NCBI RefSeq assembly: GCF_964213995.1
Contig: NW_027590177.1
Span: 434,001-498,000 of the forward strand
DNA length: 64,000 bases
Reading direction: 5' to 3'
Origin: Mustelus asterias
Lineage: Eukaryota
In this document: positions 1 through 64,000 of the stretch, piece after piece
Layout of the letters: each line of letters opens with the position of its first letter
Position numbering within the stretch: the stretch's first letter is position 1
Notes under the pieces: model-generated
Seen by the model: the letters and a program-made list of their open reading frames with translations, nothing else
What the model was told of the DNA's origin: nothing
Databases searched by the model: none
Program-made: the position numbers and the translations under genes

Positions 1-859
1 ATTTAAAGGGCCTCTCACTGGTGTGAGTGACTTTGTGACTCAGCAGGTTGGGTAAATTAGTGAATCCCTTCCCACACACAGAGCAGGTGAATGGCCTCTC
101 TCCGGTGTGAACTCGCTGGTGTGTCAGCAGGGTGGATAACTGCGTGAATCCCTTTCCACAGTCAGAGCAAGTGAATGGTCTCTCCCCGGAGTGAACTCGC
201 TGGTGGTTCCGCAGGTTTGATGATGATCTAAATCTCATTGTGCAGAGAGAGCAGCTGAACGGTCTGTCCTCAGTGTGAATGCGCTGGTGGGACATCAGAT
301 CCCGAGAACTTTTGAAGCAACTCTCACAGTCAGAGCATTTAAAGGGTCTCTCATCGGTGTGAGTGACTTTGTGCGTCAGCAGGGCGGATGACCGAAAGAA
401 TCCCTTCCCACACACGTTGCAGGTGAACGGTCTCTCCCCAGTGTGAATTCGTTGGTGTGCCCGCAGTTCGGAGGACCGAGAGAATCCCTTCCCACACATG
501 GAGCAGCTGAACGGTCTCTCCCCGGTGTGAACTCGCTGGTGTCTCCGCAGTGTGGATGACCATTTAAATTTCATTGTGCAGTGAGAGCAGCTGAACGGTC
601 TCTCCTCACTGTGAATGCGCTGGTGGGACACCAGATCTCCAGAGCTTTTGAATCCGCTCCCACAGTCAGAGCATTTAAAGGGTCTCTCATTGGTGTGAGT
701 GAGATTGTGACTCAGCAGGTGGGAGAACTTACTGTATCCCTTCCCACAGACTGAGCAAGTGAAGGGTCTCTCCCGAGTGTGACTGCGTTGATGGATTTTC
801 AAATCACAGGGCAACATGAATCCTTGTCCACAATCGTCACATTTCCACAGTTTCTCCAT
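1..859 (-). CDS. C2H2 zinc-finger protein gene A (partial, runs off window start; 10 fingers visible)
   Basis: Manual translation from ATG at 859 (MEKLWKCDDCGQGF...) is open to position 1 with canonical CxxC-x12-HxxxH fingers and TGERPF-type linkers; inverted paralog of gene C. Absent from the ORF track because no stop lies in the window. Confidence 0.9.
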   Translation of the reverse strand, partial: MEKLWKCDDCGQGFMLPCDLKIHQRSHTRERPFTCSVCGKGYSKFSHLLSHNLTHTNERPFKCSDCGSGFKSSGDLVSHQRIHSEERPFSCSHCTMKFKWSSTLRRHQRVHTGERPFSCSMCGKGFSRSSELRAHQRIHTGERPFTCNVCGKGFFRSSALLTHKVTHTDERPFKCSDCESCFKSSRDLMSHQRIHTEDRPFSCSLCTMRFRSSSNLRNHQRVHSGERPFTCSDCGKGFTQLSTLLTHQRVHTGERPFTCSVCGKGFTNLPNLLSHKVTHTSERPFK

Positions 860-1924
860 GATGCGGGTGTCCTTGTGACTCTCCAGGTTTGATGATCAGT
901 TGAATCCTTGTCCACACAGAACACGTGTACGGTCTCTCTTCACTGTAAACGGTGCAATGTTGTTTCAGCCTGTGTAACCGGTTAAAGCTCTTTCCACTAT
1001 CAGTGGACTGGAACACTCTCACCCAGGTGTGTTCCAGTCACACTGATGTTTAAAATCTCCTGAAGCAAACAGATCAGACAAACATTGCTTTTCTAGATAC
1101 AAAGGTCGATGATATTCAGGTCCCAATAAATCTAATGACTCTGTCAAATCTTGATGTGATGTTTAGTTTGAAATTTCTGTCTGTAAGTTCTCACCTCCTG
1201 ATATCTATGAAAGGAATTTACAACAGGCATCACTGTCAGTACAGGATAGAAATTCAGAACAGACAATTCTAGTTTCTATGGAACATTCTTTCCTCTCTCA
1301 TTCCCCAAAATCTGTCAATCTCCATCCCACACACTCTCCCTCAATTCTCCCTCTGCTCTCCTGAGTATACAACCTCCCAAGTCTATTGAAGGTGCTGATT
1401 CAGGCTGATTAACAGATCCATGCTGACCACTTTCTGCATTGGACACAGAGATCTGAAAATCTACGTGTAACGACCGGCCTACACACCAGAAACTAAAATC
1501 TGTGCCATATGTGGGACCGGATAACTGGATTGGGAGAAGGAGAAGGATGTGGGGAAGAATTTTATTTTGGTGCAGAAAGGTCATTACCTGGAACCCGCTG
1601 CCTCAGAGGGTTGTGGAAGTGCAAATGATCCATGATTAATCTTCAAGCTGACAGCCACGTTAAAGTTTTACATTTGGCCATAAATGAGCAGCCTGATGCT
1701 GTGTGTAATGCACTGTATTACCTGGTTACAGATACATGAAGAATGTGAGGAGGATTTTTATTTAGGCAGCGAGTGGTGACCTGGAAGTTAAAAATTCAAC
1801 AAGTCCCCAATTTCCCCCAGAATGCAAAAGAAACACAAAAGCGGAGCAAAGAAAGTGTTTTACTCACAGATGTTGGCCTCTTTTAGGTCAAGAGGAGCTC
1901 ACGAACTATTTTTCAAATTGACAT

Positions 1925-1997
1925 TGAGCCAGCCAGGAGTCGCACCTGGAATCTTCTGATCCGTAGTCAGACGCGTTATCCATTGCGCCACTGGCCC
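1925..1997 (-). tRNA. TRNAR-ACG: tRNA-Arg(ACG), probably impaired (T-loop GTGCGA instead of GTTCGA; discriminator A)
   Basis: Reverse complement GGGCCAGTGGCGCAATGGATAACGCGTCTGACTACGGATCAGAAGATTCCAGGTGCGACTCCTGGCTGGCTCA differs from the canonical vertebrate tRNA-Arg-ACG at 2 positions. Confidence 0.9.
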
Positions 1998-2134
1998 ACA
2001 CTCTCACAGATGTTGGAGAGACAGGAGGAAGTTTGAGTCTGTCTGAAGCTCAATCTTCATTCAGAGAGAGAGCAGCAGCAGCTTTGCCGGGCAGGAATGA
2101 GCAGCTGAACAAGCTCATTGTGCAACTTCCGCAT

Positions 2135-2375
2135 GTAAATCCCAAACATTTACCCTGCTAATTCCCCCCGACACAAGGGTCAATTTAGCATGGCCAATCC
2201 ACCTAACCCGCACACCTTTGGACTGTGGGAGGAAACCAGAGCACCCGGATGAAACCCACACAGACATGGGGAGAACATGCAAACTCCACACAGACAGTGA
2301 CCCAGGCTGGAATTGAACCTGGGTCCCTGGTGTTATGATGCAGCAGTGCTAACCACTGTGCTGCCGTGCTGCCCC
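2135..2375 (-). mobile_element. HE1-type (V-SINE) tRNA-derived SINE, 3'-truncated
   Basis: GGGGCAGCACGGCAGCACAGTGGTTAGCACTGCTG head with A/B boxes and TGTGTGGAGTTTGCA core, shared with many copies in the window. Confidence 0.85.
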
Positions 2376-2778
2376 ATTTTATAAATACCATGGAAGCAGA
2401 GGAGGTTTCCTAGATTGATTCCCAATCCAGTAGTGTGAAATGTTAACTCTGTTTCTCTCTCCACAGATGCTGCCAGACCTGCTGCGTTTTTCCAGTCCTT
2501 TCTGTATTTATTTCAGATCTACCTGTAGTGGGGGGAAAAACACTATTTACTATCCAGGATAAAATAAATGTCCTTCATCAGCTTTTGTGGATCATTTCAG
2601 TGGCAATGTGCTCTCCCAGGCTCAAAGAGCATCAGCCCACTGGAAGCAAAGTCGTGCGATCGGCCAGTCCAGCAGAAAGAATCTCTCCCACCCTTCCACT
2701 TCACCAACTATAAGAATAAACATGGTTCAGTCCTGGATGTGATTAATGGCAGGAATAACAGCAGAATCCAACCCGTCA

Positions 2779-3789
2779 TCACTTGTGAACTTGCTGGTGT
2801 GTCCGCAGGCTGGATGACTGAGTGAATCCCTTCCCACACACACAGCAAGTGAACGGTCTCTCCCCAGTGTGAACTCGCTGGTGTATCCGCAGGTGTGATG
2901 ACGTTCTAAATCTCTTTGAGCAGTGAGAGCAGCTGAATGGTCTATCCTCAGTATGAATGCGCTGGTGAATCATCAGTTCCCGAGAGCTTTTGAAACCACT
3001 CCCACAGTCAGAACATTTAAAGGGTCTCTCATTGGTGTGAGTGAGATTGTGGTTCTGCAGGCTGGATGACTGAGTGAATCCCTTCCCACACACAGAGCAG
3101 GTGAACGGTCTCTCCCCAGTGTGAACTCGCTGGTGTATCCGCAGGTGGGATGGCGTTCTAAATTTCTTTGCGCAGTGAGAGCAGCTGAACGGTCTCTCCC
3201 CAGTGTGAATGTGCTGGTGGATAATCAGTTCCCGAGAGCTTTTGAAACCACTCCCACAGTCAGAGCATTTAAAGGGCCTCTCATTGCTATGAGTGACTTT
3301 GTGTTTCGACAGGTTGGATAACTGCGTAAATCCTTTCCCACACACCAAGCAGCTGAACGGTCTCTCCCCAGTGTGAATGCGCTGGTGAATCATCAGTTCC
3401 CGAGAGCTTTTGAAATCACTCCCACAGTCAGAGCATTTAAAGGGTCTCTCATTGCTGTGAGTGACTTTGTGTTTCGACAGGTTAGATAACTGCATAAATC
3501 CTTTCCCACACACCAAGCAGGTGAATGGTCTCTCTCCAGTGTGAACACGCTGGTGTTTCTGCAGATCGGGTAAATGAGCAAATCCGTTCCCACACTCAAA
3601 GCAGATGAACGCTCTTTCTCCAATATGAACCAGCTGATGTCGCTGCAGATGATATAACCGAGTGAATCTCTGCCCACACACAGAGCAGGTGAATGGCCTC
3701 TCCCCGGTGTGACTGCGTCGATGAATTTCCAATTTACAGGGAGCTCTGTATCTTTTTCCACAGTCCCCACATTTCCACCGTTTCTCCAT
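2779..3789 (-). CDS. C2H2 zinc-finger protein gene B (336 aa, 12 fingers, no effector domain)
   Basis: ORF track; 12 x 28-aa fingers; upstream acceptor TTTACAG|GATAT at 4148/4147. Confidence 0.92.
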   Translation of the reverse strand: MEKRWKCGDCGKRYRAPCKLEIHRRSHTGERPFTCSVCGQRFTRLYHLQRHQLVHIGERAFICFECGNGFAHLPDLQKHQRVHTGERPFTCLVCGKGFMQLSNLSKHKVTHSNERPFKCSDCGSDFKSSRELMIHQRIHTGERPFSCLVCGKGFTQLSNLSKHKVTHSNERPFKCSDCGSGFKSSRELIIHQHIHTGERPFSCSHCAKKFRTPSHLRIHQRVHTGERPFTCSVCGKGFTQSSSLQNHNLTHTNERPFKCSDCGSGFKSSRELMIHQRIHTEDRPFSCSHCSKRFRTSSHLRIHQRVHTGERPFTCCVCGKGFTQSSSLRTHQQVHK

Positions 3790-4604
3790 GGTGCGGGTGT
3801 CCTTGTGACTCTCCAGGTTAAACAGTCAGTTAAATCTCACAAAGAACACGGGTACAGTCTCTCCCCGCTGTGAATGCTGCGATGTATTTTCAGGCTGTGT
3901 AACTGGTTAAAGCTCTTTCCACACTCAGTGCACTGGAACACTCTCACTCGGGTGTATCTGTGCCTTGGTGCTTTTCCAGTCACATTGATATTAAAGACCT
4001 GTTTTCGCAGACAGAACAGAGAAACATTTCTCCTTCCAGATTCAAAGACTGATAATATTCAGGTCCGATGAATTGAGTGATGGTGTCAGATGCTGATGTG
4101 ATGTTTGTTTCAAGATTTTGGTCTGTCAATCCTCACCTTCTCATATCCTGTAAACGAGTTTGAAAAATTCATCAATGTCAGCACAGGATAGAAATTCAGA
4201 ACAGACAATTCTAGTTTCTATGGAACATTCTTCCTCTCTCATTCCCCAAAAGCTGTAAATCTCCATCCCACACACTCTCCCTCCATTCTCACTCTGCTGT
4301 ATCTAATATTCACCCTCCCAATTCTCCTGAAGGTGCTGATTGAGGCTGATTGACAGATCCATGCTCACTGCTTCCTGCCCTGGACACAGAGAGCTGGAAA
4401 TCTCCATGCAGGCGGCCAGACAGATATATGTCTATCTGACTGGACTAACAATGTGTGGAATGTACAGACTGGATTCACTTCCTTTCCCTTCAGTTGCTGC
4501 AAGTCCCCAATTTCCCCCAGAATGAGAAAAGAAATGGAAAGGGGGAGAAAAGAAAGTGTTTTACTCACAGATGTGGGCCTCTTTGAAGGTAAAACAAGCG
4601 GCTT

Positions 4605-4674
4605 TGCATTGCCCGGGATCGAACCCAGGCCTCCTGCATGGCGGGCGAGAATTCTACCACTGAACCACCAATGC
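4605..4674 (-). tRNA. TRNAG-GCC: tRNA-Gly(GCC)-derived gene, degenerate (likely pseudogene)
   Basis: Reverse complement GCATTGGTGGTTCAGTGGTAGAATTCTCGCCCGCCATGCAGGAGGCCTGGGTTCGATCCCGGGCAATGCA; A and B boxes recognisable; U33>C, CpG-type transitions in the anticodon arm and a 1-nt deletion in the T arm; TTTT about 10 nt downstream. Confidence 0.85.
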
Positions 4675-4824
4675 ACAGGGCAGAGAAAACTGCTCAGTTC
4701 TTTCAACCAGTGCTTTCACATGCAAAGAAATGTTGATGATTTGCAGCAGCAAATTCAATGCTGCTAACACACACACACAACAACACTGTTGGAGAGAGGA
4801 GGAAGATTGAATCTGTCCACTCCC

Positions 4825-5000
4825 CTTCCGGGGCCTTCCGGGGCTGCGCATGTCCAAGGGAGGGGGGAAGCTGCGCATGTGCGGGGGAGTGCCCACCCAC
4901 TGACCTTCATTCTGAGGTGTTGACCAATGGGAACTCTGGAGGACCGGAAAGACTCTGGTCCTCCAGCCAATCAGAGCTCCCCATTGTCTGAATGCGGAAG
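4825..5000. promoter_or_regulatory. Putative bidirectional Pol II promoter between divergent tRNA-ZNF cassettes B and C
   Basis: Two TGCGCATG (NRF1-like) sites, ETS-like CTTCCGG/CGGAAGT, CCAAT at 4924 and 4967, palindrome CTGGAGGACC-N11-GGTCCTCCAG (4936-4966). Confidence 0.65.
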
Positions 5001-6917
5001 TGGACAATGAGCTTGTTCAGCTGCTCATTCCTGTCCAGCAAAGCTGCTGCTGCTCTGTCTCTCAATGAAGATTGAGCTTCAGACAGACTCAAACTTCCTC
5101 CTGTCTCTCCAATATCTGTGAGAGTGTGGGTCAGTGGCGCAATGGATAACGCGTCTGACTATGGATCAGAAGATTCCAGGTTTGACTCCTGGCTGGCTCG
5201 ATGTCAATTTGAAAAATAGTTTGTGAGCTCCTTTTGACCTAAAAGAGGCCAACATCTGTGAGTAAAACACTTTCTTTGCTCCGCTTTTGTGTTTCTTTTG
5301 CATTCTGGGGGAAATTGGGGACTTGTTGAATTTTTAACTTCCAGGTCACCACTCGCAGTCGAAACAGAAATCCTCCTCACATTCTTCATGTATCTGTAAC
5401 CAGGTAATACAGTGCATTACACGACCATCAGTCAGCTCATTTATGGCCAAATGTAAAACTTTAACGTGGCTGTTAGCTTGAAGATTAATCATGGATCATT
5501 TGCACTTCCACAACCCTCTGAGGCAGCGGGTTCCAGGTAATGACCTTTCTGCACCAAAATAAAATTCTTCCCCACATCCTTCTCCTTCTCCCAATCCAGT
5601 TATCCAGTCCCACATATGGCACAGATTTTAATTTCTAGCGTGTAGGCCGGTCGTTACACGTAGATTTTCAGATCTCTGTGTCCAATATAGAAAGTGGTCA
5701 GCATGGATCCGTTAATCAGTCTGAATCAGCATCTTCAATAGACTTGGGGGGTTGTATACTCAGGAGAGCAGAGGGAGAATTGAGGGAGAGTGTGTGGGAT
5801 GGAGATTGACAGATTTTGAGGAAAGAATGTTCCATAGAAACTAGAATTGTCTGTTCTGAATTTCTATCCTGTACTGACAATGATGTCTATTGTAAATTCC
5901 TTTCATAGATATCAGGAGGTGAGGATTTACAGACAGAAATTTCAAACTAAACATCACATGAAGATTTGACAGAGTCATTCGATTTATTGGGACCTGAATA
6001 TCATCGACCTTTGATCTGTTTGCTTCAGGAGATTTTAAACATCAGTGTGACTGGAACACACCCGAGTGAGAGTGTTCCAGTCCACTGATAGTGGAAAGAG
6101 CTTTAACCAGTTACACAGGCTGAAAATACATTGCACCGTTTACAGTGAAGAGAGATCGTACACGTGTTCTGTGTGGACAAGGATTCAACTGATCATCAAA
6201 CCTGGAGAGTCACAAGGACACCCGCATCATGGAGAAACTGTGGAAATGTGACGATTGTGGACAAGGATTCATGTTGCCCTGTGATTTGGAAATTCATCAA
6301 CGCAGTCACACTCGGGAGAGACCCTTCACTTGCTCAGTCTGTGGGAAGGGATACATTAAGTTCTCCCACCTGCAGAGTCACAATCTCACTCACACCAATG
6401 AGAGACCCTTTAAATGCTCTGACTGTGGGAGTGGATTCAAAAGCTCTGGAGAACTGGTGTCCCACCAGCGCATTCACACTGAGGAGAGACCGTTCAGCTG
6501 CTCTCACTGCACAATGAAATTTAAATGGTCATCCACACTGCGGAGACACCAGCGAGTTCACACCGGGGAGAGACCATTCACCTGCAACGTGTGTGGGAAG
6601 GGATTCTTTCGGTCATCCGCCCTGCTGACGCACAAAGTCACTCACACCGATGAGAGACCCTTTAAATGCTCTGACTGTGAGAGTTGCTTCAAAAGTTCTC
6701 GGGATCTGATGTCCCACCAGCGCATTCACACTGAGGACAGACCATTCAGCTGCTCTCTCTGCACAATGAGATTTAGATCATCATCAAACCTGCAGAACCA
6801 CCAGCGAGTTCACACCGGAGAGAGGCCATTCACCTGCTCTGTGTGTGGGAAGGGATTCACTAATTTACCCAACCTGCTGAGTCATAAAGTCACTCACACC
6901 AGTGAGAGGCCCTTTAA
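4992..6917. repeat. Right arm of a ~2 kb inverted segmental duplication (left arm 1-2134)
   Basis: Direct comparison: tRNA-Arg, donor, intron and ZNF exon are near-identical reverse complements. Confidence 0.92.
5128..5200 (+). tRNA. tRNA-Arg(ACG)-derived pseudogene with anticodon mutated to ATG
   Basis: GGGTCAGTGGCGCAATGGATAACGCGTCTGACTATGGATCAGAAGATTCCAGGTTTGACTCCTGGCTGGCTCG; three C>T changes versus Arg-ACG (position 4, anticodon, C56). Confidence 0.88.
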
Positions 6918-7587
6918 ATGCTCGGACTGTGGGAGTGAATTCAAAATTTCTGGGGAACTGGTGTCCCACCAGCGCATTCACACTGCGGACAGACCGTTCA
7001 GCTGCTCTCTCTGCACAAAGAGGTTTAAGAGGTCATCCACACTGCAGAGACACCAGCAAGTTCACACCAGGGAGAGACCGTTCATCTGCTCTGTGTGTGG
7101 GAAGGGATTCAGTCAGTCATTCACCCTGCTGACACACCAGCGTCTTCACACCGAGGAGAGACCGTTCACCTGCACCGAGTGTGGGAAGGGATTCACTCAG
7201 TCATCCACCCTGCTGACTCACCAGCAAGTTCACAGCGGGGAGAGACCGTTCACCTGCTCCGAGTGTGGGAACAGATTCACTCGGTTATCCAGCCTGCAGA
7301 GACACAAAGTCACTCACTCCCAGGAAAGACCCTTTAAATGCTCTGACTGTGGGAGTGGCTTCAAAATTGCTGAGCATCTGATAGACCACCAGCGCATTCA
7401 CACTGGGGAGAGACCGTTCAGCTGCTCTCACTGCACAAAGAGGTTTGGAAGGGCATGCACACTGAGGAGACACCAGCGAGTTCACACTGGGAGAGACCAT
7501 TCACCTGCTCTGTGTGTGCGGAAGGATTCACTCCATACCCCAGCTGCTGAGGCACAATGTCCCTCACACCCAGGAGAGACCCTTTAA
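6229..7587 (+). CDS. C2H2 zinc-finger protein gene C (452 aa; 15 intact fingers then a frameshifted tail)
   Basis: ORF track; 1-nt deletion at ACTGGGAGAGA (~7486-7496) shifts frame; decayed fingers continue to the ancestral stop CACAAGTGA at ~7721. Acceptor TTTCATAG|ATATC at ~5908. Confidence 0.88.
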   Translation: MEKLWKCDDCGQGFMLPCDLEIHQRSHTRERPFTCSVCGKGYIKFSHLQSHNLTHTNERPFKCSDCGSGFKSSGELVSHQRIHTEERPFSCSHCTMKFKWSSTLRRHQRVHTGERPFTCNVCGKGFFRSSALLTHKVTHTDERPFKCSDCESCFKSSRDLMSHQRIHTEDRPFSCSLCTMRFRSSSNLQNHQRVHTGERPFTCSVCGKGFTNLPNLLSHKVTHTSERPFKCSDCGSEFKISGELVSHQRIHTADRPFSCSLCTKRFKRSSTLQRHQQVHTRERPFICSVCGKGFSQSFTLLTHQRLHTEERPFTCTECGKGFTQSSTLLTHQQVHSGERPFTCSECGNRFTRLSSLQRHKVTHSQERPFKCSDCGSGFKIAEHLIDHQRIHTGERPFSCSHCTKRFGRACTLRRHQRVHTGRDHSPALCVRKDSLHTPAAEAQCPSHPGETL

Positions 7588-7999
7588 ATGCTCTGACTGT
7601 GGGAATGGTTTCAAAAGCTCTCAGGAACTGATGATCCACCAGTCCATTCACAGCTGCTGTGTGTGGGAAGAAATTCACCAGTTCATCCCTCCTGCTGAGA
7701 CACCAGCGAGTTCACAAGTGATGACAGGGGTTGGATTCTGCTGTTCTTGCTGCTGTTAATCACATCCAGGACTGAACCATGTTCGTTCTGACAGTGGGTG
7801 AAATGGGAGGGTCGGAGGGTTTCTTTCTGCTGGACTGGCCGCTCTCACAATTCTGCTTCCAGTGGGTTGATGCTCTTTGAGCCTGGGAAAGCACATTTCC
7901 ACTGAAATGACCCACACAAACCGACGAAGAACATTTATTTTATGCTGGAGAGTAAATAATGTTTTTCCTACCACTACAGGTAGATCTACAGTAAGTACA

Positions 8000-63530: not shown

Positions 63531-63714
63531 ATATCAATGTCTTTAAGAGAGAGAGAGAGGGAAACCTGGGCCAACCTTTCCAGAGTCTGCAGCCTCCCTG
63601 GATTCACTTCCTTTCCCTTCAGTTGCTGCAAGTCCCCAATTTCCCCCCAAAATGAGAAAAGAAATGGAAAGGGGGAGAAAAGAAAGTGTTTTACTCACAG
63701 ATGTTGGCCTCTTT

Positions 63715-64000
63715 TAGGTCAAAACAAATAAACAAACTCAGATTAAGTCAGGACAAAGTAAAAGGGGCAGCTCCCCAAAAAGGAGGGGGAACAGCCCGAA
63801 CAGAAATCAAAGTACAAAGGAAACTTAAAAACATCAAATTAAAATGTGATTATTAGGGTCAATAATGCACCCCAACCCCTGCGGTGCCCAGCGGGCGCGG
63901 AAAGCGTCAACCTCGCCCGTGGACACCACATGCTCCCTCTCCAGGGACACCTGGCCGCGAACGTAGCCGCGGTAGAGGGGAAGACAGTCAGGATGGACGG
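63715..64000 (-). mobile_element. 3' end of a Tx1-clade (L1 group) non-LTR retrotransposon, continuing beyond the window
   Basis: 63998-63834 translates openly as VHPDCLPLYRGYVRGQVSLEREHVVSTGEVDAFRARWAPQGLGCIIDPNNHILI*, resembling Tx1 ORF2 C-termini (recognised from memory); CpG-rich; T-rich ~110-nt 3' UTR. Confidence 0.65.

Follow-up and report, generated by a model that had tools for sequence, protein, structure and literature searches.

Why tRNA-derived sequences of different isotypes should repeatedly stand at the front of zinc-finger (ZNF) genes, beside one and the same donor-like sequence, is the question raised by a 64,000-nucleotide stretch of the Mustelus asterias genome (NW_027590177.1, positions 434,001 to 498,000, hereafter the window). 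A sequence-only reading had proposed that tRNA, splice donor and ZNF gene form a fixed functional cassette. The analysis described here leads to another, probable answer, in which the common module consists of a LINE tail and the duplicated target of that LINE, the tRNAs likely being unprocessed transcripts that entered by template switching and were then spread by gene duplication.

Zinc-finger loci of the window

Rfam and ARAGORN both call the three tRNA-derived copies, at 1925-1997 (-), 4605-4674 (-) and 5128-5200 (+), and C2H2 arrays lie downstream of them on the same strand, as had been proposed. The module was also correctly recognised as common: it occurs four times in the window (1855-1880, 4556-4581, 5245-5270 and 63686-63711, with GTGAGT starting at 1867, 4568, 5258 and 63698), none being expected from 100 shuffles. 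The features of these loci are listed below (TSD, target-site duplication).

2-895 (-): gene A C2H2 array, running past the window edge
1863-1876 (-): gene A target-site copy (TSD) on the downstream side, putative donor GTGAGT at 1867
1877-1891 (-): gene A, 3' tail of the Tx1-clade LINE, 15 nt
1892-1924 (-): gene A, 3' trailer of the captured tRNA-Arg gene, T4 broken, homologous to the flank of true tRNA-Arg genes
1925-1997 (-): gene A tRNA-Arg(ACG) copy, 2 changes relative to the true gene, with a 5-nt leader at 1998-2002
2003-2016 (-): gene A upstream TSD, donor-like GTGAGA at 2007
2017-2135 (-): gene A putative non-coding exon 1, the same sequence being found 5' of empty sites
2779-3825 (-): gene B C2H2 array, one more finger lying upstream in a different frame
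4564-4577 (-): gene B target-site copy, putative donor GTGAGT at 4568
4578-4590 (-): gene B, 3' tail of the Tx1-clade LINE, 13 nt
4591-4785 (-): gene B, segment captured from two tRNA-Gly genes in tandem, 90-91% to the C2058 tRNA-Gly array
4786-4792 (-): gene B upstream target copy, truncated to CCAACA and lacking a donor
4825-5000 (no strand): putative divergent promoter-like region common to genes B and C, with CCAAT and GC-rich motifs
5001-5108 (+): gene C putative non-coding exon 1
5109-5122 (+): gene C upstream TSD, donor-like GTGAGA at 5118
5123-5235 (+): gene C captured pre-tRNA-Arg, with 5-nt leader, tRNA copy (5128-5200) and 35-nt trailer ending in T4
5236-5248 (+): gene C, 3' tail of the Tx1-clade LINE, the junction TTT fitting trailer and LINE alike
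5249-5262 (+): gene C target-site copy, putative donor GTGAGT at 5258
6193-7587 (+): gene C C2H2 array, 15 fingers followed by a frameshift
63694-63707 (-): fourth target site, without tRNA
63708-64000 (-): ORF2 3' end and 3' UTR of the same Tx1-clade LINE, 1524 bp in total, continuing past the window end

A second copy of the 14-nt target CCAACATCTGTGAG is found 5' of both Arg copies (2003-2016 and 5109-5122), each insert therefore being bounded by a target-site duplication, and both upstream duplicates hold a second donor-like GTGAGA (2007 and 5118); at copy B only CCAACA remains of the upstream target. Loci A and C form a single inverted duplication (93.5% across 1706 bp), so the three cassettes of the window represent two events, and at the fourth module a truncated LINE of 1.5 kb takes the place of a tRNA. 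Upstream of gene A exon 1 a repeat, which we take to be SINE-like, adjoins in place of the CCAAT promoter, and the assignment of named factors to the CCAAT and GC-rich motifs between genes B and C is likewise our assumption.

None of the three tRNA copies has all that is expected of a functional tRNA gene (intact cloverleaf, promoter boxes and T4). Copy A carries a T-loop change and, as had been noted, has no T4 terminator before the donor-like site, a run that copies B and C possess; copy C has 3 changes, affecting the anticodon (now ATG) and the T-loop, while copy B has several changes and a 1-nt deletion.

The module is the tail and target of a Tx1-clade LINE

Rather than being a cassette built on a tRNA gene, the module consists of the 3' terminus of a Tx1-clade LINE (AAAAGAGG) in one half and, in the other, of the duplicated target of this LINE at the putative exon-1 donor of a large ZNF family. 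The intact ORF2 of the element (1304 aa, with endonuclease and RT) is 48% identical over 99% of its length to ORF2 of Xenopus Tx1L, its closest named protein, and a quick tree of 17 rows unites the two with a turtle element (SH-aLRT 100); in copy L247, PF03372 and PF00078 (APE-type endonuclease and RT) score above cut-off. A 786-codon frame lies 5' of ORF2, with a zf-CCHC match below the curated cut-off. Intact ORF2 copies are 99.2-99.6% alike, and TSDs of 13-16 bp together with variable 5' truncation characterise both dispersed copies and those in ZNF genes.

The 5' end of the LINE holds remnants of exon-1 and target sequence, and full-length elements carry a captured tRNA-Val head whose leader is GTT, as in true tRNA-Val genes. 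Older heads start 3 nt before the mature end, and the young subfamily has inherited the head with its stems kept and its promoter boxes changed. Release of the head by RNase P was considered and marked down on account of the early start of the older heads, the exon-1 relic of about 65 nt kept upstream of the head in young elements, the changed T-loop, and the intact ORF2 of L366 and L367, from which most of the relic is absent.

An insertion hotspot in putative exon 1

Genome-wide, the module has 250 exact copies, of which 100, taken in contig order, were examined. A tRNA stands directly upstream at 29 (22 Arg, 3 Gly and 4 partial Phe), LINE bodies occupy 39, and 32 hold tiny tails or other captures; nested insertions are among them. 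The proposal that several isotypes occupy one slot independently was borne out, with Arg, Gly, Phe and Val found there; 71 of the 100 sites have no adjacent tRNA. Exact paralogous empty sites, moreover, number 58, and those inspected, 30 in all, consist of exon-1 sequence with no tRNA within the 150 nt read upstream, which tells against a fixed functional cassette.

Insertion at this place has been repeated. Among the 79 sites with an exon-1 anchor, 36 scripted junction classes were found; about 30 distinct junctions are left once four Arg classes are united, and three anchors that lie far away are discarded, on visual inspection. Many different truncations thus meet the target at one base. 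An upstream copy of the target lies within 300 nt at 28 of the 100 sites (reversed control, 0); a broader count of any upstream target-like 14-mer (64/100) was set aside, since distant matches include chance ones.

The targeting is a preference, as 803 of the 875 exact older tails are dispersed; 72 are followed by CCAACATC, where simple arithmetic, given that CCAA is the start at 7 of 30 dispersed tails, would lead one to expect about 0.8. The younger subfamily inserts in paralogues at the TCTCTC-AATGAAG position, homologous to gene C exon 1, so that two LINE subfamilies use two exon-1 sites about 40 nt apart. Of the 58 young tails listed on contigs C71-C91, 47 lie at exon-1-type sequence (15 of them in one tandem array), against 2 of 30 on C1-C14, one a loose match. 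PMC4494074 calls a Tx1 family target-specific when one sequence type makes up more than 20% of its flanks; the older tails at the donor site (72/875, 8%) fall under this value, and young tails lie at the target in at least 48 of 217 cases (22%), 129 of the 217 being outside the count and 15 belonging to the one array.

Origin of the captured tRNAs

The inserts contain the flanks of tRNA genes. Arg and Gly trailers extend as far as the Pol III T-run, where 13-16 bases of LINE tail directly follow; the Arg trailer agrees with a true gene flank in 29 of its 35 positions and stops at T4, and the Gly insert, composed of a spacer of about 110 nt, the tRNA-Gly copy (4605-4674) and a T4-ending trailer, corresponds to two tandem tRNA-Gly genes that are not separated by a T4. 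In Arg copies A and C the small RNA lies 5' of a truncated LINE, in the same sense, within a single TSD around both.

These structures suggest that the Arg and Gly inserts are likely pre-tRNA/LINE template-switch chimeras that were later spread by ZNF gene duplication. The LINE would nick ZNF exon 1, copy 13-16 nt from the tail of its RNA and then switch to a nuclear pre-tRNA at the oligo-U end, copying then reaching the 5' leader (Arg, Val) or a read-through spacer (Gly). The Phe junction, which has no T4, speaks against this course of events. Pieces of tRNA genes might instead have been taken from genomic DNA during repair of the break made by the LINE. The long Gly spacer could stem from such DNA-templated capture, true tRNA genes share contigs with ZNF clusters, and other captures also occur at the hotspot; nevertheless, the transcript-like ends of the Arg and Gly inserts at the T-run, and the transcript-like starts of Arg and Val 3-5 nt before the mature 5' end, make this origin extremely improbable.

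A LINE aimed at tRNA genes themselves, such as those of the Dewa or TRE type, was also considered and ruled out, the TSD being ZNF sequence that encloses the tRNA.

Probable spread by gene duplication

Amplification of tRNA and ZNF as units was correctly anticipated: the Arg cassette has 57 exact matches, which gives at least 55 copies once two dispersed ones among the 30 read are subtracted. Young SINEs retrotransposing themselves into the same target would also produce a tRNA head with a LINE 3' tail, and Gly inserts do sit behind either exon 1 or the tail of a second element, while two dispersed Arg-plus-trailer copies exist on C7. However, 27 of 30 Arg loci lie in ZNF genes and share both insert boundaries and the target, where tRNA-derived SINEs would show independent insertions with TSDs of their own, and none of the 30 is a dispersed copy with tail and own TSD; in addition, Pol III transcripts would mostly lack the LINE tail because T4 precedes it. 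The Arg copies also share their flanks, with one intron variant at 18 of 22 sites that none of the 78 other filled sites has and that occurs at 1 of 30 empty ones. The different variant at the remaining 4 of 22 fits SINE mobility too, and makes a second insertion or gene conversion possible. On balance SINE activity is most unlikely, and duplication of the ZNF genes is preferred.

Are the tRNAs functional?

The tRNA could, whatever its origin, be a selected part of the unit as promoter, TFIIIC insulator or cleavable 5' UTR. This would suit the copy number of the Arg unit, the perfect tRNAs in 5 of 27 fetched Arg copies and the position of the gene B tRNA. Yet tRNA-less tiny LINE tails have been amplified too (one class accounts for 10 of the 79 sites), most of the module sites examined lack an adjacent tRNA, and the B-box region, anticodon and CpGs are altered at an intron-like rate. 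In 29 copies, 7 of 12 CpG positions of the Arg tRNA are changed, and non-CpG variable sites number 7 of 61 in the tRNA and 37 of 293 in the intron (P=1.0), a test of low power in which the locus-picking pattern fixed the tRNA 3' end. We therefore regard selected function as very unlikely, and the three tRNAs of the window are most likely passengers. The assembly contains 17 perfect tRNA-Arg(ACG) sequences, and the five inside cassettes could be working genes.

As to splicing, GTGAGT is invariant in 12 of 12 distinct putative donors, chosen by the LINE tail and adjacent AAAACA, while the exon side varies. In genes A and C the upstream donor copy could place the tRNA in the intron, and in gene B, where the downstream GTGAGT is the sole donor-like site, the tRNA would fall in exon 1. 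Positions 5205-6700, a stretch containing neither the tRNAs nor the upstream donor copy, were compared with four presumed-RNA contig sets from three other organisms: cover was low at 5305-5754, and no joint at 5257 was among the 15 of 163 joints listed. A spliced-retrocopy search with one guessed junction as query gave no matches.

Comparison with known elements

Xenopus Tx1L and the families Keno, Kibi, Koshi and Tx1-Mar (PMC4494074) share with the shark LINE an ORF2 with APE-type endonuclease and RT, to which an ORF1 zinc knuckle may be added in view of the sub-cut-off match, and target-preferring Tx1 LINEs likewise insert repeatedly or in tandem at one multicopy target, with TSDs. That source lists as their targets transposons of the DNA and LTR kinds, RNA genes, satellites and microsatellites; the shark LINE differs in using the first exon of a protein-coding family, at two sites by two subfamilies. 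The crocodilian U1/U2-headed Tx1-Mar and SINEU, for which transcription from the flanking target has been proposed (PMC4494074), also bear recurrent small-RNA 5' heads, some on autonomous families, although in the shark the heads derive from pre-tRNAs (Arg, Gly, Phe, Val) and include a leader and a trailer, and the short shark chimeras have probably spread by host gene duplication instead of SINE mobility.

U6/L1 chimeras (PMC4476161) and human tRNA/LINE-1 chimeras (bioRxiv 10.1101/2025.02.02.635956) similarly place a small RNA 5' of a truncated LINE within one TSD. The 21 human cases are mostly antisense half tRNAs, whereas the shark captures of Arg, Gly and Val comprise the whole tRNA in sense orientation and unprocessed form, are concentrated at one target and are nearer to the U6 chimeras. 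Co-transcription of R2 with 28S rRNA and the 5' transduction of SVA-MAST2 (via PMC4494074) are parallels for the apparent dependence on a target promoter and for carrying upstream target sequence, the shark host being instead a Pol II gene family. In literature outside Repbase entries, Kojima and Fujiwara (2004) and article supplements, no published case of Tx1 insertion into the first exon of a protein-coding family was found; the available part of PMC8869645 names repeats and RNA genes only as targets, that of PMC13343379 does not mention Tx1, ZNF or tRNA, and that of PMC10547256 does not mention sharks or Tx1.

Implications

The link between tRNAs and ZNF genes is explained as the footprint of a LINE homing to the first exon of a protein-coding family. 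Because its 5' end contains exon-1 and target relics, we infer that the element lives on ZNF promoters; its choice of target may, more weakly, be aided by pairing of read-through RNA with the nicked site. A wider picture is tentative and rather unlikely to hold in full: an active Tx1 lineage would live on the promoters of ZNFs that may police it, choose sites partly through such pairing, retain tRNA-Val as a selected 5' UTR cloverleaf (stems kept, promoter boxes lost) that aids processing, stability or translation of its RNA, and seed new, sometimes intact tRNA genes in ZNF clusters.

PMC10547256 describes the evolution of ZNF families as a presumed conflict with transposons, and a LINE nesting in ZNF first exons would be a testable twist in this host-parasite relationship; with intact ORF2 copies so alike, the targeting is made assayable. 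The hotspot offers a natural series of probable pre-tRNA captures, and in one case (Val) the captured tRNA has come to be inherited with an autonomous LINE as a component of it; if hotspot seeding of tRNA genes in ZNF clusters is true, it would be a cause of the co-localisation of tRNA and ZNF genes.

The module as a LINE-target junction

The three tRNA copies in the window (Rfam and ARAGORN), the four copies of a short module at the putative exon-1 splice donor of zinc-finger (ZNF) genes and the C2H2 arrays downstream of the modules are all present as the sequence-only reading had described them. Across the 3.68 Gb assembly searched there are 250 exact copies of the module, and upstream of the first 30 lie mostly pieces of one repeat ending TTTGACCTWAAAAGAGG, with varying 5' cut points. 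The repeat tail occurs in 875 exact copies, with target-site duplications (TSDs) of 13-16 bp at dispersed ones, and an intact copy encodes a 1304-aa endonuclease-reverse transcriptase protein. Its ORF2 is 48% identical to that of Xenopus Tx1L, with which it groups in a quick tree, and ray and shark protein fragments are the most identical partial matches. One variant of the empty site is found in 58 exact copies, and the 30 examined have no tRNA upstream but exon-1-like sequence instead. The module is the junction between this LINE and its target.

Within the window, a 14-nt TSD, CCAACATCTGTGAG, brackets both Arg inserts; in genes A and C, which are inverted duplicates of each other, its two copies provide a donor-like GTGAGA on the 5' side of the tRNA and GTGAGT on the 3' side. 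At B the downstream donor-like site is the only one left. Splicing at the upstream site would place the tRNA of A and C in the intron, and splicing at the downstream one would place it in exon 1. The fourth module is the end of a 1524-bp truncated LINE. The reading frame of gene C shifts after its 15th finger (7490-7590), and in gene B the first finger and main array are in different frames (3825-3935). A near-identical copy of the A-B-C triad (loci L133, L134 and L138 on contig C110) represents either recent segmental duplication or the alternative haplotype.

Census of module sites

The census took the first 100 sites out of 250. Of these, 22 carry Arg, three Gly and four partial Phe tRNA copies, seven a full-length LINE with a tRNA-Val head, two a full-length LINE without one and 30 a truncated LINE, the remaining 32 being short tails or other captures. 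ZNF-intron hallmarks lie downstream at 88 sites. An exon-1 anchor is present at 79 sites, which a script sorts into 36 junction classes; combining those of Arg and setting aside, on inspection by eye, three anchors that lie far away leaves about 30. Nested insertions occur at some sites.

Captures at ZNF exon 1, and 5S rRNA copies
L217, L241, L246, L263: 3' part of a tRNA (which we take to be tRNA-Phe) with a 50-nt trailer that runs directly into the LINE tail at the donor-site junction; below Rfam threshold
L220, L227, L232, L256 and L238, L244: captures of about 100 and 140 nt, respectively, each joined within exon 1 to a tiny LINE tail; the two loci scanned against Rfam gave no match
L335:864-972, L356:842-950, L217:2111-2219: 5S rRNA copy, at L335 and L356 with a short upstream flank within ZNF exon 1, then a SINE-like repeat

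A second, apparently non-coding element (tail AATAAACAAAAAGAAA, 226 exact tails, TSD 13-16 bp, often tandem) uses the same donor-site base as the LINE (L008, L066, L072, L141). Short LINE-tail units of 132 bp and about 255 bp are tandemly amplified at ZNF exon 1 (L358 on C89, L216 on C71), and LTR-retroelement-like gag/protease/RT frames, presumably Gypsy-like, are nested in a Tx1 copy (L065:3381-5419).

Origin and spread of the tRNA inserts

In the Arg insert a 5-nt leader precedes the tRNA, and a 35-nt trailer that closes with a Pol III terminator (T4) lies between the tRNA and the LINE tail; 29 of the trailer's 35 positions agree with sequence flanking true tRNA-Arg genes. The Gly insert is 90-91% identical to a tandem tRNA-Gly gene pair, covering the spacer, second gene and trailer up to the T-run; as the source spacer lacks T4, a read-through transcript is a plausible source. 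Such pairs, with T4 absent between the paired genes, form a tandem array of 1.8 kb period on C2058 (L154-L163) and are a candidate dicistronic pre-tRNA. The Val head begins with a GTT leader, as in true genes. Since the ends of the Arg, Gly and Val inserts are those of Pol III transcripts, tRNA capture likely involved template switching, in which LINE reverse transcription would pass onto a pre-tRNA. U6/L1 chimeras (PMC4476161) and the U1/U2 heads of Tx1-Mar (PMC4494074) are alike in template switching onto small RNA, whereas human tRNA/L1 chimeras, mostly antisense halves, are unlike the cassette tRNAs (10.1101/2025.02.02.635956).

Common boundaries are found at 27 of 30 Arg loci; the other three (L107 and L108, on C7, and L113), excluded from the variation count, have the Arg tRNA and cassette-type trailer outside the cassette, without the LINE-target junction. 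The L107 copy begins precisely where the mature tRNA does and has one change in common with cassette copies, hinting that a cassette tRNA may once have been transcribed, then recopied. An intron variant common to 18 of 22 Arg sites, and nearly absent elsewhere, together with the inverted duplication of A and C, indicates that the Arg unit probably spread mostly along with ZNF genes. The tRNA copies decay at CpGs, and at non-CpG sites they are about as variable as the intron (7/61 variable sites across 29 copies versus 37/293), a weak test. The assembly contains 17 perfect copies of tRNA-Arg(ACG), and five of them lie in cassettes.

Target preference of two LINE subfamilies

Tails of the older subfamily are followed by CCAACATC in 72 of 875 cases, a count inflated by duplication, against about 0.8 that our own arithmetic predicts from the first four bases favoured where copies are dispersed. 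The younger subfamily (217 exact tails) inserts at a site that lies about 50 nt 5' of the donor, and its five intact ORF2s are 99.2-99.6% alike:

L247:2117-6028 (-), L360, L361, L364, L366: young Tx1 subfamily, intact ORF2

On contigs C71-C91, 47 of the 58 young tails listed are at exon-1-type sequence (15 of them one tandem array), against 1-2 of 30 on C1-C14, the remaining 129 lying outside the count. The young elements form head-to-tail arrays in ZNF exon 1, with a unit of about 7 kb, their target being recreated by the element's own 5' end. The first bases beside dispersed copies are those seen at the respective ZNF sites, GCAA/CCAA in 21/30 for the older and TCTC/ACAA in 21/30 for the younger subfamily, a match that would fit priming by read-through RNA and also an endonuclease preference.

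The young 5' end is a diverged exon 1 copy, after which come relics of tRNA-Val and then of the donor; this order suggests that the element may be transcribed from ZNF promoters. In four young variants the tRNA-Val relic differs from a true gene at 4-6/40 stem and 15-17/32 loop positions (Fisher P 0.0001-0.004) and keeps 18-19/20 base pairs (P 0.008-0.08 versus the same changes at random positions), but the variants are related, so that these statistics are close to one observation. Pairs are retained through wobble under an A>G bias, and some intact young copies lack the relic. The kept pairing hints at a selected structure, which is the boldest of the readings offered here.

Conclusions

A literature search, which had Repbase entries outside its reach and covered its sources in part, found no paper on a Tx1-clade LINE targeting ZNF first exons. 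In conclusion, this genome, probably that of a shark, holds a Tx1-clade LINE with a preference for ZNF first exons, and small-RNA/LINE chimeras are made at that site; both belong to known kinds of thing, and the variant found here is new.
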